A DNA stretch of 10,661 bases from a virus (IMGVR_UViG_2703718674_000018); one strand, 5' to 3'. Positions 1 to 7,143 are shown, numbered from the stretch's first letter. The notes: generated by a model not told the origin, from the sequence alone. Made by a program: numbers and translations.

Positions 1-1236
1 CTACGATAACCGCGCATTCAACATGGCTATCTGTTCGTCGTTCATGTCATCAATCCACATACCGTAAATTTCATACACCATCTGCGCAGTTTCATGCCCC
101 ATTTGGCTGGCTATAAATGCCGGGTTCGCTCCTGCCGTCAACAGCCAGCAGGCAAAAGTATGCCGCGTATGGTACGGATTACGACGGCGAATACCAGCAC
201 GTTTTACTGCTGCATTCCACCTTGCCCCCAAACTGCTTACCGAGTAATAAGGTTTTTGTTTTCCGTTACACACCCTGGGCATGAAAACAAAATGCAGTTT
301 TTGCTTTTCGGTTCTGCCGTACTCCCGATGGTAAAAGGTGATTTCGCTTTTGCGATGATGCCCGGTCAGTTTGTATTGCTCCTTCAGTGCTTCAAGAGCA
401 GGCTGCAGTAGTGTTACTGTCCGGATCCCGGCATTTGTTTTTGGGGGACCGAACATATCAAGTATCGTCAGGTTTCTTCTGACATTCACTATTCCCTTTT
501 CGAGATCCACATCCTCCCACGCCAGAGCTGCCAGTTCCCCGTGACGAAGTCCTGAGTAAACGGCAAATTTCCACAAGTTCTGGCTCTGTCCTTTTTCACT
601 TTCCATTAATGCATTGAATTCTGTTTTAGATAACGGATCAGGCTTTATTCTGTTTCGCTGTAATTTTTTTACTCCTTCAAATGGTTTGGTTGATATAAAT
701 CCCGACTGATACGCAAAACGCAACAGCGAACAGAGCAGGGCGATATAGTTATCAACTGTGCGCACGGTTCTTCCTTTTTTGTTGGATCTTGGATTATCCA
801 GGTAAAGCGTTTCTCCATGCAGCAGTTCATTCCGGTAGTTTAAGATATCGCTATAACGAATATGTGATATCGGGGTACTTTCACAAATTATTATTCTGAG
901 TGTTTTTAATTGTGATTTTGTTTTCTTCATTGTGTTTGTTGTTAACTCTGTCTCTTTAATTTTTGTCCAGATATCACAAAGCTCTCCGAACGTTTTTATG
1001 ACTCTCGTTGTCACCATTTTTGCCCCAGTGCTGGACTGGGGAAAACGTCTTAAATACTCAAATTCACCGGAGTTTATTTCATGAACTATCAGCGCTCTTA
1101 AATTTCCGGCCTTTTTAATATTACTGTTTGTAATCTCCCAGCCTTTTAATGTTTCCCGACATCGTTTTCCTCGAAACATGAACCAGATGCGAATGTATCT
1201 ACCTCTAATCTCGACACCTGTTGGTAATTTAGACAT
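1..1236 (-). CDS. intR: Tyrosine-type site-specific integrase, 411 aa, complete (Rac prophage IntR-like)
   Basis: ORF-track 411-aa ORF; ATG at 1236..1234 and TAG stop at 3..1 on the minus strand. C-terminal tyrosine-recombinase signature visible in the translation (YHTRHTFACWLL...MGHETAQMVYEIY: His-x-x-Arg box and catalytic Tyr). Start lies 1 nt downstream of the excisionase stop, the usual xis-int arrangement. Symbol from recollection of Rac IntR (411 aa). Confidence 0.9.
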   Translation of the reverse strand: MSKLPTGVEIRGRYIRIWFMFRGKRCRETLKGWEITNSNIKKAGNLRALIVHEINSGEFEYLRRFPQSSTGAKMVTTRVIKTFGELCDIWTKIKETELTTNTMKKTKSQLKTLRIIICESTPISHIRYSDILNYRNELLHGETLYLDNPRSNKKGRTVRTVDNYIALLCSLLRFAYQSGFISTKPFEGVKKLQRNRIKPDPLSKTEFNALMESEKGQSQNLWKFAVYSGLRHGELAALAWEDVDLEKGIVNVRRNLTILDMFGPPKTNAGIRTVTLLQPALEALKEQYKLTGHHRKSEITFYHREYGRTEKQKLHFVFMPRVCNGKQKPYYSVSSLGARWNAAVKRAGIRRRNPYHTRHTFACWLLTAGANPAFIASQMGHETAQMVYEIYGMWIDDMNDEQIAMLNARLS

Positions 1237-1237
1237 A

Positions 1238-1453
1238 TCATGAGTCTTTGATAAACTGATTTATCTTTGGATAGTTGTACCAGATAATCCCTCGTTTGCT
1301 GTCTGGCTTACCTAAAGGAGATACTCGTTTGAAGTGGAAGCCCTCCACCCAACAGTTCTGGCGGTATGCTTCAATTTGTCTGGCCCCCAGACCAGTGCGA
1401 AGCATCAGGCCGTATTCAACCATCCACTCTTCATTAAAGATTACTTGTGCCAT
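1238..1453 (-). CDS. xisR: Excisionase-like small protein, 71 aa (XisR/YdaQ-like)
   Basis: ORF-track ORF 1238..1477 begins with TTG (rc of caa at 1475-1477). Internal ATG at 1453..1451 is preceded by GAGGTGA at about 7 nt, giving [10 protein letters not shown]... (71 aa). Position immediately upstream of int, nearly abutting it. Function inferred from position, size and recollection of Rac ydaQ. Confidence 0.7.
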
Positions 1454-1531: not shown

Positions 1532-1741
1532 TTAATTTGAATACAATGCAATTCTCGAGGACTGAAGTTTCTCGCAATTAAAATTTATCAGTTTTACTTT
1601 CTGCTCTCTGGAAACGCCTGCTTCTTTTTTACCTGAGAGCATTTTTTCGCATTCTGATTTCGTTAGTTTAGATTTTGAATATCTTGTCCAGTTAGTAGGA
1701 GTGCCACCTTCCTTTTCAATAGTGGCGGTAATTTTATACAT
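1532..1741 (-). CDS. rcbA: Small Rac-prophage protein YdaC/RcbA-like, 69 aa
   Basis: ATG at 1741..1739 preceded by strong SD (GGAGGTG, 5-nt spacer) gives MYKITATIEKEGG... (69 aa); stop at 1532. Upstream ATGs at 1753 and 1813 lack an SD. Start overlaps the ralR stop by 8 nt (translational coupling). Confidence 0.65.
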   Translation of the reverse strand: MYKITATIEKEGGTPTNWTRYSKSKLTKSECEKMLSGKKEAGVSREQKVKLINFNCEKLQSSRIALYSN

Positions 1742-1928
1742 GAACACCTCCATTATTATTTCCAGTGGTTCGTTTATTCCATCTTTCGAGTGCTTCTTTT
1801 TCACTTCCACCATAACCGGTTCGGGATTCGCATCCGTTACACTTCGCTCGGTAATATCCTGAAATGGCTTTCACCGTTACTGATGGACAACCACAAAATG
1901 GACATGGTTTAACATTGTCATATCTCAT
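1734..1928 (-). CDS. ralR: Restriction-alleviation protein Lar/RalR, 64 aa; Cys4 zinc-ribbon (CPFCG...CNGC)
   Basis: Translation MRYDNVKPCPFCGCPSVTVKAISGYYRAKCNGCESRTGYGGSEKEALERWNKRTTGNNNGGVHV has two CxxC pairs typical of the Lar family. ATG at 1928; alternative in-frame ATGs at 1940 and 1967, so the start is uncertain. TAA stop at 1736..1734. Confidence 0.75.
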   Translation of the reverse strand: MRYDNVKPCPFCGCPSVTVKAISGYYRAKCNGCESRTGYGGSEKEALERWNKRTTGNNNGGVHV

Positions 1929-1984
1929 AATTTTTCTCATAAAAAATATTTCAAGTTGGCGGTGCATTACACCGCCAGGCTGAA

Positions 1985-2794
1985 TTATTCCTCTGAATTA
2001 TCGATTACACTGTATTCCCCGGTTAATACAGAGGAATCTGCAGGATCGATTGTCAGTGGTTCCTTTTCATCCATTGATACTGCACGCTGGATCTCAATTG
2101 ATACGGGCAGATATTTGAACAGGCGACGAATAGCCGTTTTCTTTGCCATTTCTTCCCAGTGAGTTACCCACGGCCCGTTATTACCAGCTTTACTCAGGCT
2201 GCGCACCAGCTCAATCTGTTTGCGCGTCATAACTTCAAACTGAGTACCTCCGTCTTTCAGTCTTGCGACAGCATAGACGTGGGTAACCGGGGCATCTTCG
2301 TTTTCTCCCGGGCGGTGTATTAACTTTTCATCAAGGCCAAATTCGAAGCTAAACTCGTCACCTTCACGGACAACACGGGCTGACAGGCTGGCGATTTGAC
2401 CAGAACGGCGAGCCAGATCAATCATGCCGCGATAGCCAATGATTAGCTGAACGTTCTTTTTACCGCTCTTTTCGTTTTTATTACCAAAAGGCAGTAAATA
2501 TGCATGACCGAGGGCGCTACCTGGCTCAAGTCCGAGCTGTGAACACTGTACGATGGCACCGATAAAACTCGTCGAGTCACAGTTTCTTAGTTCCGGTACT
2601 TTACGGATTTCTGTTGTAGCAATGCGGATCATGCGTTCCGCTGTCATGTGACGTGGCAGAGCTGCTGCCAGTTGCGCTTTCATTGCCGGGCTGTTAATCA
2701 CGCACAGCACATCCTTATCGTTAACTGCTGCTGGTGCACGGTTTCCCTGAGTTTTTTGCAGATCGGCTTTTGCGATAGGTGGTTGCTTAATCAT
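1985..2794 (-). CDS. recT: RecT single-strand annealing recombinase, 269 aa
   Basis: Translation [24 protein letters not shown]...SVIDNSEE matches my recollection of E. coli RecT almost residue for residue. ATG at 2794 preceded by AAGGAGT; alternative ATGs at 2800 and 2851 lack suitable SD spacing. Start overlaps the recE stop (2787-2789) by 8 nt. Confidence 0.9.
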
Positions 2795-5462
2795 TTGCAT
2801 ACTCCTTAGCCCAGCGGGGCAGTGATAACGTCTTAATAGCTGGCCATTCATCGGTATTTAGGCAGTCAGCCAGGGTCCGCAGATTGCGGTGATATTCCTG
2901 CTGGCCTGCCAGTTTTGCTTCTTCGCCCATCATGAAAATCTCAACCGGATAACGTCCGCATTCAACAGTTGTGCTGGCAACCAGAAAAACGAAAGTTGGC
3001 TGCACGCCAAACTGTGCTTCATAACCGTCACTGTAGAATGCATCCTGAACGTGATAGCGGTAGTCGTAATAAGCCGTTTTGAATCGTTGAATATCCGCCG
3101 TAGTTTTCACGTCCATGATCCAGTGAAATTCAGGAATAATTTTGTCCGGACGGCACCGACACAAAATTCCTGTTTCCGGATCTTCCCAGTAAATTGATGA
3201 TTCAGCGTGTCCGGCGCTTTCAACAAGCCATTGCCCCAGCGGCAAAGCCATAACGCTTTGATACATGAGTTCAATTTTCCGACCTTCTTCCGCAGTGATA
3301 ACCGTTTTTCCTGTGCTTGCGCATTCCATCAGAAACGCTTTCTCTTCTTCTTTTCCGGCGTTTGTACGGCGGTTAAATTCAGGTGCTACGATAAAGCGGT
3401 TACTGAATTCTTCCGGTTCAAGTACCCGGAAGTGGAAAGCGGTTCCTAAATCGAGCGTTTTTGTCTTTGTAGTGTCCACGGGAGCATCTTTACGCCACAA
3501 ATACAGTGCCGGAGTATCAGCAATGTCATCGAGCTGAGACTTACTGACACCGGGACCTGCGTGGTAATTCTCATTCGAAATTCCGTAATAAATACCTGGC
3601 TCTATGTCTTCTACGATTACGGGATCTGCGACTTCGCCAGTTTCATCACTGCAATCGCGATGCGGATCGCTGCCAGCATTCTCATTGTGCGGATGTTCAG
3701 CGCCTTCCATTTCCTCCAGACCTTTTTCCTGATATTCATTCTGATTTTCTTCATTAAAGGTTTTCTGATACGTTGCGTCGCCCATTACCGCGCCACAGTC
3801 AGGACAGTTGCCGCCGCCAGCCTTACCGCAGGCGGTGCAAACTTTCTCCGTTTCCTGTTGTTGCACTACTGGCTCAGGCTGTTTCGTTTCTGGCTCGTTT
3901 TGTTGCGTATTTGGGTCGTTCTGTTCCGTTTCTGGCTGATTCTGGTATATAGAGTCGCGGGTCTGGATCCCCTTAACCCATTTCGGATCATTCGGGTCGC
4001 TAATCCCTTCAACAAATTCTCCGCGAGAGGCAGCCAGTAATTTGTCTGCATCGACAGGATTTTTGGGCGGAATGTTTTTCCGGGCTTCATGGAGTTCTGC
4101 CCGCAGTTTCTGATATTTCGCATCAACAGAATTTACCTGTGACTGAGCATCCAGCGGCTGCGTGTCCTGATGATGTTCAGTTGCATCCGGTTCCACTGTT
4201 TCAGCCGTTGCCTGTTCATCTGCCATTGCGCAAGATGGTTGCGGTTTTTCTTCATCATCCTGTTTTTCTTCTTCTGTTACACGCTGCGGCATCGGGGCAG
4301 AGGAACGACCGCAGGCAATATCCACGATTTCTGGATCAGGGTTGGCATGATCAGTTTCAGTCAGTACTTTGTTCAGATATTCAGTGACGTGTGCGGGGAT
4401 AACCTCGATCCCAATTGGTGCTTCTTTTACGGACGCAACCACGATGGCGCGGGAATAATCCAGCCCGCCAGGCATGGTGATGAATTTGTCGCGGAAAACA
4501 GAAAAGGGTGGTTTATTTTCAGCGATAATTTCCTCGACACGTTTAGCGTGTGCCGGATGAAGGTTATAAATGTCCACGTCCATTGAACGAGCCAGTACGC
4601 CAGTGGCTACGTCGCGCGCCAGTGACGTCAGATCGTGAACGAAACCTTCGCCGCGATCGGTGAGGTTCCCGCCGCCAGCATTAGCGCCGGAAGCCGTACG
4701 CGTGATGCGTGAAACACGATTTCCTTTTCGCCATTCTTTTGTCAGAAGACCGCGATCAATGTGTTCGGTATCCAGCCAGGCTGAAATGAAATTCTTAAAT
4801 TCATAGGGCTGATGTTTTTTCGTGATAGAGAACACTGCCTTAATTGCATCAGTCAGGCGGAGCAGGGCGGCATTATCCAGAGTTGTCGGTTCTGCCATGC
4901 TGCGTATGGCCAACAGCAGATTCTGGACATAGCTGTTTTCCTGATCCATCTCAAGAGCAGTAATGTGTTTGCGTTGTTCACGGGTGGCATGATGCAGGTA
5001 TTTCCGATCCCCGGCTGCATACGTAAAAATGTGCAGAAGACGCTGTGTGAACCGCAAAGTGGCTACAGAGACTTCGCAATCCTGGCAATCCTCGTGGGCG
5101 TCTGCCTGCGCGTTTTCTTCCTGGCCTCCCGCCAGTTCTTTGGTTTCTTGAGCATTATCCTGGTGGTGAACGTCGTCTGGCGCTGCTCCCGGTTTTAGTT
5201 CCCAGGTCATGGAGTCTTTGCTGAGTTGATAGCGTTCACTCCAGGTAAAATCGATCTCACCTTCAGGGGGAAGGTCATTAACGACAGGAAAATTCGTGGC
5301 AACAGGTTTAAAATAGCTGCTCAGTTTTTTACCTGACTTAACGAGCAGGTAGTCCAGAGTGGCACAGGTCGATTCAAAATCGTCGCTTGCCCACAGGACG
5401 ACGTCAGGTTCACCGGATGATTTTTTCGCTTTCCGTAACAGGAAGAGTGGTTTTGTGCTCAT
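2787..5462 (-). CDS. recE: RecE exonuclease VIII, 891 aa; C-terminal nuclease domain, long N-terminal region with acidic low complexity and a Cys4 motif
   Basis: Single 891-aa ORF starting [39 protein letters not shown]..., which I recognise as the RecE N-terminus. Immediately upstream of, and translationally coupled to, recT (the RecET pair). ATG at 5462..5460. Confidence 0.9.
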
Positions 5463-5570
5463 TGTTTTTTAACCTCAACTCAGATTAAAATTCGTTTTGT
5501 TCAGTGAATGATCTTGCCGGATACACACTGTTCATAGCCTGCGTATGGCGCAGGCTATTTCTTTCAGATT

Positions 5571-6085: not shown

Positions 6086-6306
6086 TACCATGACTCCGCC
6101 TTTACAGGTAAACCATCACGACCGAGGAAGACTCTAATCATGCAGTCAGAAATGCATGTTTTTGTAGTCAGGCTACGAATATAAAGTTTTCGCTTTTTAA
6201 TATTGTTTGCCGAGGCGATATATGTCCGACCTTCATGAAGAACATAATCGCCAGGAGTCACACACTGACGTGGTATTTCATCAGTTCCGAAGTGATGAGC
6301 AATCAT
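6085..6306 (-). CDS. kilR: KilR-like cell-division inhibitor, 73 aa
   Basis: ATG at 6306 preceded by GGAG (6-nt spacer); the ORF-track start at 6318 (MEIIM...) lacks an SD. Translation [73 protein letters not shown], 73 aa. Function by recollection of Rac KilR as an FtsZ inhibitor. Confidence 0.75.
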
Positions 6307-6471
6307 AATTATCTCCATTTTTACAAATGAATTTTGTCGATGCGGTGCCTGGTGCCTCCAGGTGACGTTAACCAGTTAACAATTAACGCCGGATAATCCA
6401 CCCATAACACTGATGCTTTTAACTGTGCCGCGTGCGCTTAGCCGCATTCACCGCATCACAAAATTCACTTT

Positions 6472-6515
6472 AAAAAGGGGCGGCAGGGCAGCCACGGAGT
6501 AGAACTGATGCCGCC
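6472..6515 (-). terminator. Candidate intrinsic terminator inside the leftward operon (tL-like), minus strand
   Basis: Minus-strand RNA would form a 7-bp GC stem (plus-strand GGCGGCA 6479-6485 pairing with TGCCGCC 6509-6515), followed by CC and then UUUUUAAA (plus-strand A5 at 6472-6476). The loop is long (23 nt), so this is weak. Confidence 0.3.
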
Positions 6516-6714
6516 AAAGACTACACATAGCAATGTCGTTATTTACAACCGGAGGCGCACTCCCACCATTTAAATTTAACAGACAAGACCGACTCTTTAT
6601 GGATACCGGAAATGCGCCTTCGTGTTGTGCCCGGTTTTATTTCACCACCTCCGGGCTTTGGTGGCCTCGGCTATACCCCTACAGCAAGAATATTGAATTA
6701 ATCCAATAAATGGT

Positions 6715-7118: not shown

Positions 7119-7143
7119 AAAAAAAGCCCGCTGATAGCGGGCT
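7119..7143 (-). terminator. Rho-independent terminator downstream of the repressor gene
   Basis: Plus strand AAAAAAA-GCCCGC-TGATA-GCGGGC-T; on the minus strand this is a 7-bp GC-rich stem (AGCCCGC/GCGGGCU) with 5-nt loop followed by UUUUUUU, about 30 nt after the repressor stop (7174). Confidence 0.65.

Follow-up and report, generated by a model that had tools for sequence, protein, structure and literature searches.

RalR and RalA of the Rac prophage in Escherichia coli K-12 make up a toxin-antitoxin pair of type I, for which the toxicity of RalR, the antitoxin activity of the small RNA RalA and the dependence on Hfq have all been reported (Guo et al. 2014, PMC4041452; RF02694). The 5' end of RalA was mapped by primer extension, and its 3' end was assigned from a predicted weak terminator only. 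The same study observed that wild-type cells contain ralR RNA and deduced that the gene has a native promoter; it also concluded that the neighboring ydaC (rcbA) is not translated and encodes no protein (PMC4041452). With respect to operon organization, protective RNA structures reshape operon stoichiometry in E. coli by differential decay (Dar and Sorek 2018, PMC5927463).

Here we analysed a stretch of viral DNA of 10,661 nucleotides (the window), whose left 5.5 kb corresponds to a Rac-type prophage's left arm, where every gene lies on the minus strand (Table 1). The region 1450-2100 is 100% identical to E. coli K-12 MG1655 and was found in 1924 of 5426 complete E. coli genomes, and the best whole-length match of the window is a prophage in O157:H7 strain 493/89. 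K-12 Rac has the same order recT-ralR-rcbA-xisR-intR, RalA at the same coordinates and the same 16-nt complementary sites, and the toxin-antitoxin locus shows no difference at all; the prophage as a whole, Rac-like and from an O157:H7-type strain, differs from K-12 Rac in a variant recT N-terminus and a longer recE. The first-pass annotation had named Lar/RalR as a published type I toxin that acts with the small RNA RalA, which is correct. The interval 1734-1984 is very probably the published RalR/RalA type I toxin-antitoxin locus of Rac, with the hairpin between recT and ralR standing apart from it as post-recT operon punctuation. The toxin-antitoxin locus is already known and needs no new explanation; the identity and position of ralR, RalA and their pairing sites are established in the present analysis, as is the presence of the hairpin, with its stability and conserved position.

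Table 1. Features of the left arm of the prophage, in window coordinates
Feature	Position	Strand	Basis or remark
intR	1-1236	-	ORF list and RefSeq annotation of matching genomes
xisR	1238-1453	-	ORF list and RefSeq annotation of matching genomes
rcbA (ydaC), DUF1187 protein gene	1532-1741	-	ORF list, RefSeq, Pfam
TACAAT, candidate -10 box for the RalA 5' end at 1557	1542-1547	+	inferred, read from the sequence
RalA small RNA, 179 nt	1557-1735	+	Rfam RF02694
RalA pairing segment UGCUUCUUUUUUACCU, RalA nt 63-78	1619-1634	+	direct repeat of 1791-1806; PMC4041452
Predicted weak RalA terminator	1702-1735	+	fold; 6-bp stem 1702-1707/1722-1727, 14-nt loop, then GUAAUUUU
ralR (lar), toxin, 64 aa, Lar_restr_allev PF14354	1734-1928	-	ORF list, RefSeq, Pfam on homologs
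ralR target of RalA, codons 41-46	1791-1806	-	repeat search, run count; compensatory M1/M1 mutations (PMC4041452)
Extended imperfect stem around the core hairpin	1943-1993	-	MFE structure, inverted repeat; last recT codons pair with U-run
Core post-recT hairpin UGGCGGUG(U)-AAU-(G)CACCGCCA	1957-1977	-	begins 7 nt past the recT stop
recT	1985-2794 (stop codon 1985-1987)	-	ORF list, RefSeq; followed by the hairpin
recE	2787-5462	-	ORF list and RefSeq annotation of matching genomes

Organization of the locus

The flagged interval 1734-1984 holds the toxin gene as proposed, but RalA lies largely outside of it and touches only positions 1734-1735. The ralR gene is a small ORF of 64 residues that is identical to RefSeq RalR and whose homologs carry PF14354; it encodes the published Lar-family DNase toxin. 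The three in-frame ATGs noted earlier at 1967, 1940 and 1928 are all present, in a 77-aa ORF that begins with MHRQLEIFFMRKIMRYDNV. The ATG at 1928 is the RefSeq start and is common to the homologs of E. coli, Salmonella and Citrobacter, being the only one of the three shared with the Citrobacter-type genes, which have GGAG upstream. The ATG at 1940 is in frame in the hairpin-bearing, ralR-linked loci, and that at 1967, located in the loop of the hairpin, has disappeared from Salmonella by loop inversion and from two E. coli variants. Downstream, ralR and rcbA overlap by 8 nt, and no terminator lies between them. A promoter-like site at 1954..1927 in the ralR start region was rejected, as it would initiate downstream of the ATG and is not conserved.

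Elsewhere in the window, an Rfam match to DicF (RF00039, 60.9 bits against a gathering threshold of 48) marks a DicF-like small RNA at 6478-6529 on the minus strand, in an intergenic position upstream of kil, and a sub-threshold STnc100 match at 6299-6488 overlaps it. Between a DUF1391 gene and a repressor-like gene, the minus strand at 7125-7143 has the textbook shape of an intrinsic terminator (AGCCCGCT-AUC-AGCGGGCU, followed by UUUUUUG), which underlies a weak Trp_leader match.

The antitoxin RNA and its pairing with ralR

The main outcome for the toxin-antitoxin system is one of bookkeeping: the antitoxin RNA, expected beside the toxin gene and left unplaced in the first-pass annotation, is now located at 1557-1735 on the plus strand. 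Scanning the window against Rfam gave a full-length match to RF02694 with 225.1 bits (gathering threshold 170, E 1.8e-54). The RalA gene adjoins ralR on the opposite strand and is convergent with it, with a 2-nt overlap at the ralR stop codon, and it is wholly antisense to rcbA. The numbering of Guo et al. fits this placement, in which the first base, a G, is 1557 and T63, G64, G81, G83 and C161 correspond to t1619, g1620, g1637, g1639 and c1717, respectively.

The candidate -10 box of RalA reads TACAAT in Salmonella as well and TATAAT in the E. coli group of 94% identity. The promoter scan made no call at 1542-1547 and gave TTGACG-16-AATAAT at 1491-1518 instead. Between xisR and rcbA, a perfect 16-bp AT-rich palindrome, TGATTATTAATAATCA, lies at 1505-1520. 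Loci of E. coli and Salmonella retain it even with a different xis/int module, and it overlaps promoter-like sites on both strands, including that at 1491-1518, about 30 nt upstream of the mapped RalA 5' end.

RalA has no conserved fold. The energy of its MFE structure is indistinguishable from that of shuffled sequences (z = -0.26), and the consensus fold of nine homologs reaches -8.2 kcal/mol with little covariation, keeping neither the 5' stem-loop nor the stem of the terminator at 1702-1735, on which the terminator scan also made no call. The RalA model scores 139-144 bits in Salmonella, which is below threshold, and 29-36 bits in Citrobacter-type loci.

An independent repeat search recovered the published pairing site as a 16-nt direct repeat on the plus strand, TGCTTCTTTTTTACCT at 1619-1634 and TGCTTCTTTTTCACTT at 1791-1806. 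Nucleotides 63-78 of RalA are thereby complementary to nucleotides 123-138 of the ralR coding sequence in 14 Watson-Crick pairs and one G-U pair, with one mismatch. Ungapped run counts found 11 contiguous pairs between RalA nt 63-73 and ralR nt 128-138, a run length that about 2 in 100 shuffled RalA sequences attain; in the ralR region -72..+20 RalA has no Watson-Crick run of at least 8 nt, the only long run being at +128..+138. As published for this exact sequence, the two segments pair and, with Hfq, lower RalR synthesis.

In the Salmonella loci, where RalR is 81% identical, no Watson-Crick run reaches 8 nt, and in Citrobacter-type loci there are 8-mers at chance level only. The complementarity is thus confined to E. 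coli-type loci and is lacking in the Salmonella and Citrobacter-type loci examined (L091-L094, L096, L008 and L009), where ralR, rcbA and their arrangement are nevertheless conserved; neither the pairing site nor the RNA structure is conserved across the homologs, as would be expected of a selected RNA antitoxin, though not formally required of one. Calculated over 24-nt windows, the duplex energy of -19.8 kcal/mol at the published site does not surpass what shuffled RalA gives (mean -17.9, best -21.2), and RNAduplex on the full-length ralR mRNA and RalA returned unrealistic duplexes of 200 nt and no signal over shuffles. Given an unconserved site, an unexceptional duplex energy and an unsupported RalA fold, the 16-nt mechanism rests on the published mutational data, without comparative support. 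The non-conservation of this pairing outside the E. coli-type locus could interest those who work on RalR/RalA.

rcbA and a possible cis-antisense mode

The gene opposite RalA behaves as a coding sequence. In its own frame rcbA has a dN/dS of 0.03-0.2 among E. coli, Salmonella and Citrobacter-type loci, with changes mostly at third codon positions, and by this substitution pattern it evolves as a true protein gene under strong purifying selection. For a gene reported as untranslated, such protein-like evolution could also interest workers on this system.

Given the 8-nt overlap of ralR with rcbA, the latter is probably part of the native ralR message, and such a message would be perfectly complementary to RalA over 179 nt. 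Natively, RalA might then act mainly as a cis-antisense RNA on the bicistronic ralR-rcbA mRNA, the 16-nt site being an E. coli-specific extra. The overlap without an intervening terminator, the almost complete coverage of rcbA by RalA, the conservation of the gene arrangement but not of the 16-nt site, and the ordinary energy of the 16-nt duplex are all consistent with such a mode, and a review notes that an interaction through overlapping 3' ends is possible, the ends being unmapped (PMC4147584). However, RalA supplied from a second plasmid neutralises RalR when ralR is expressed without rcbA, and mutation of the 16 nt abolishes antitoxin activity, which matched mutations restore in an Hfq-requiring system (PMC4041452). 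We consider a mainly cis-antisense RalA possible, though on balance somewhat unlikely; the present side results leave the published experiments standing but leave room for this mode.

A stable hairpin between recT and ralR

The 7-bp hairpin that had been pointed out in the recT-ralR spacer is present: the plus strand at 1958-1976 reads GGCGGTG-CATTA-CACCGCC, and the mRNA from the minus strand reads GGCGGUG-UAAUG-CACCGCC, extended by a U-A pair between 1977 and 1957. Including this basal pair and a loop-side U-G pair, the core stem has 9 bp, with a ΔG of -14.9 kcal/mol. The 76-nt spacer RNA (1995..1920) folds at -24.1 kcal/mol, compared to -10.3 ± 2.4 kcal/mol in 200 dinucleotide shuffles, none of which was as stable (z -5.67); mononucleotide shuffles were used in the later comparisons. 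The minus strand of the whole 10.6-kb window has four uninterrupted hairpins of at most -11 kcal/mol, against about two per strand in shuffles. This count alone is not striking, and the non-randomness of the hairpin follows from its placement in a spacer of 56 nt and its conservation across lineages. Since genomes as a rule have a single copy of the region, an origin from REP or other dispersed repeats was rejected.

Another GC-rich hairpin, of 10-11 bp (ATAGCCTGCG..CGCAGGCTAT, -16 to -17 kcal/mol), lies at 5534-5558, about 72 nt upstream of the recE start, and is followed by TTCTTT on the plus strand. Together with the post-recT hairpin, it brackets the recE-recT segment between strong hairpins.

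Structured 5' regions are common in the mRNAs of type I toxins. On this background, and with the hairpin located 29 nt before the start of ralR and the in-frame ATG 1967 in its loop, the hairpin could be taken as a structured leader 5' of ralR, gating translation of the toxin and serving as the site of antitoxin action, much as the first-pass annotation suggested. The published pairing site, confirmed in the sequence, however lies in codons 41-46, well inside the coding sequence, and RalA finds no complement of at least 8 nt from -72 to the start. In the predicted fold, no pairs form at the start of ralR or in the purine-rich stretch that precedes it, and the ATG 1967 is not conserved. Moreover, in many prophages the hairpin tracks the recT stop whatever gene follows, and it is missing before ralR in Citrobacter-type loci. 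A role as a ralR 5' control element is already largely refuted and appears exceedingly improbable.

The A/U-rich stretch described on the minus strand past the hairpin is there as well (AACUUGAAAUAUUUUUUAUGAGAAAAAUUAUG) and raises the question of termination. The core hairpin has a GC-rich stem of at least 5 bp and a loop of 3-8 nt, as in intrinsic terminators, and its tail is ACUUGAAAUAUU, with no U-tract 0-2 nt past the stem and no call in the terminator scan; a U-tract at that distance appears only if the non-conserved lower stem is counted. In phage lambda, a leftward terminator past the recombination genes has the same placement. The hairpin of Rac, its lower stem and the downstream AUAUUUUUU could likewise form an intrinsic terminator or attenuator at which most recET transcription would stop, leaving the toxin gene silent: the interrupted 5+9-bp stem of the MFE structure ends directly before AUAUUUUUU, and every ralR-linked lineage retains a T-run of 4-6. 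Nevertheless, the U-run begins 10-17 nt past the conserved core stem, and the bridging lower stem (1943-1993) is degraded in Salmonella and in the E. coli group of 94% identity and absent in L095-type loci. The terminator scan was silent not only here but also in L091 and L095, and in vitro run-off arrays score recT, lar, ydaC and ydaQ as one operon (PMC3141248). Since most post-recT hairpins of other lineages lack a U-tract, a classic intrinsic terminator is disfavoured, and we regard termination of most recET transcripts at this site as unlikely.

Alternatively, ralR could have its own promoter within the recT 3' end, so that the hairpin would be a 5'-terminal stem-loop protecting the transcript from 5'-end-dependent decay. 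A promoter-like TTAACC-18-GATAAT at 2026..1997 on the minus strand would start transcription near 1990, and the ralR RNA of wild-type cells, with its inferred native promoter (Guo 2014, PMC4041452), agrees with this. The match is only 9/12, however, in a scan that yields 7 sites against 2.8 expected; the -35 element is changed in Salmonella, and L091 and L095 have no promoter-like site before the hairpin. A dedicated ralR promoter also leaves unexplained the hairpins of other lineages that are followed by the ribosome-binding site of the next gene 5-15 nt on. We therefore judge it very unlikely.

Conservation of the hairpin across recT loci

Within the ralR-linked lineages, namely E. coli, Salmonella and E. 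coli loci with a different recT of 350 aa, the core stem is unchanged and the loop varies. It reads UAAUG in E. coli including the window, CAUUA in Salmonella, which is its exact inversion, and UAGCCU in the loci with the 350-aa recT, where the recT 3' end is unrelated and similarity to the window starts at the hairpin. Between window 1958-1976 and 2452-2470 of the Salmonella locus L091, the stem is the same and the loop is reverse-complemented, an inversion of the type that flipping of a hairpin or cruciform generates. In several E. coli singletons, a base that breaks the stem is present. As the stem is otherwise invariant within the ralR-linked lineages, covariation comes only from other RecT lineages.

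In Citrobacter-type loci, ralR is preceded by an overlapping DUF7740 ORF and no hairpin is found there; a hairpin, TGGCGGCT-GCAACA-AGCCGCCA, stands right past the recT stop and differs from that of the window by two compensatory pair changes. The hairpin therefore goes with recT and not with ralR.

To cover a broader range, two scans of viral contigs were pooled into a sample of 134 distinct full-length loci with long-type RecT, which differs from that of the window. An uninterrupted hairpin of at most -11 kcal/mol that starts no more than 15 nt past the recT stop is present in 129 of them, against a background of 0.42 such hairpins per kb on the same strand, or about 0.008 expected per site. 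The 76 unique post-stop sequences comprise 26 distinct stems of 7-10 bp, with energies of -11 to -17 kcal/mol compared to -2 to -5 kcal/mol when shuffled; for nearly all of them, none of 50 shuffles was as stable. A MAFFT alignment of the post-recT sequences, whose loops and stems differ, was out of structural register, and the hairpins were judged by the energy of each sequence against its shuffles and by the positional background. In the long-type loci, UUCG and GNRA loops are frequent; eight or more different genes lie downstream, usually with no U-tract in between and with the next ribosome-binding site within 5-15 nt. Among five more distant phages with the RecT type of the window, three have a hairpin past recT (epsilon15, ST512-KPC3phi13.3 and Edno5), and Proteus Pm34 and Pseudomonas D14P have none. 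Defined as a stable hairpin on the coding strand no more than 15 nt past the recT stop, this positional class includes the hairpin of the window, at +7. The hairpins of other RecT lineages may be of independent origin.

A second conserved hairpin was observed within the long-type recT itself, about 145-165 nt into the coding sequence (loci L097-L233). Two stems of unrelated sequence share this position, CTGCATGG..CCATGCAG in 45 loci and TGGCGGG-GAAA-CCCGCCG in 15, and the hairpin is absent from the recT type of the window.

The start of homology at the hairpin between loci with different recT, and the loop of Salmonella as the exact inversion expected from cruciform- or hairpin-mediated flipping, would both suit a palindrome that acts as DNA, either as a protein-binding site or as a recombination junction between phage modules. 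But the loop length ranges from 3 to 8 nt and the half-site spacing is not kept; the stems are wholly different between lineages with pairing retained, and among the loops there is an enrichment of UUCG and GNRA tetraloops, whose significance is limited to RNA. A DNA-level function is accordingly highly improbable, and the varying loop length, the full turnover of the stem sequence with pairing kept and the RNA-type tetraloops point to an element that works at the RNA level.

Judged from its position and conservation, the post-recT hairpin is most likely an operon-punctuating RNA hairpin, and it is not part of the RalR/RalA circuit. We propose that in the recE-recT-ralR-rcbA mRNA it would form a stable 3' structure, followed by the A/U-rich single-stranded spacer, that pauses or weakly attenuates transcription, blocks 3'-to-5' exonucleases, or both, and would thereby uncouple what happens to the recET segment from what happens to the accessory genes downstream. 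Post-recT hairpins may in this manner control the share of the recET transcript that continues into accessory genes such as the toxin gene. A literature search on the recT-ralR hairpin found nothing, and for RNA ends at the locus the supplements of PMC7815308 (Term-seq) and PMC7213987 (Hfq CLASH) contained no entry for ralR, ralA, recT or rcbA.

A more far-reaching combination may be put forward as speculation. It would take the post-recT hairpin as an undescribed, widespread punctuation of RecET modules that sets the ratio of recombinase to accessory gene, here a DNase toxin, and at the same time would regard the toxin-antitoxin picture as incomplete: rcbA would encode a genuine protein under selection, its translation coupled to that of ralR, the ralR-rcbA message would be the native target of RalA as a long cis-antisense RNA, and the 16-nt pairing in trans would be recent and E. 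coli-specific. That all of these hold together seems rather unlikely.

Comparison with known systems

Among annotated elements, the hairpin of the window resembles the stem-loop past the RecT gene of phage epsilon15 (GenBank AY150271.2), which is annotated as "stem-loop; transcriptional pausing", a function that is apparently a prediction. Both have a 7-bp GC-rich stem 7 nt past the recT stop and are followed by the next gene without a U-tract. They differ in the stem, which is GTGGCGC/GCGCCAC in epsilon15, as well as in the RecT subfamily and the downstream gene. Similar to the elements of Dar and Sorek (PMC5927463), the hairpin of the window is stable and conserved and sits at the 3' edge of an operon segment, upstream of an A/U-rich single strand; those elements were mapped by Term-seq and lie mostly inside coding regions, whereas that of the window was recognised in the sequence. 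With Rho-independent terminators it shares a GC-rich stem, a short loop and a downstream T-run on the coding strand. However, its T-run stands 10 nt off the conserved stem, it drew no call in the terminator scan, and related hairpins have no T-run.

The RalR/RalA pair itself can be compared to TisB/IstR-1, ShoB/OhsC and ZorO/OrzO (PMC4041452, PMC4147584). In all of them the antitoxin RNA is encoded beside the toxin gene and the pairing is short (16-21 nt). RalR/RalA differs in that the pairing lies inside the coding region rather than in the 5' UTR and depends on Hfq, and in that the two genes are convergent, compared to the divergent arrangement of the other pairs. The toxins differ as well, RalR being a soluble DNase and the toxins of the TisB/ShoB/ZorO type being membrane peptides.
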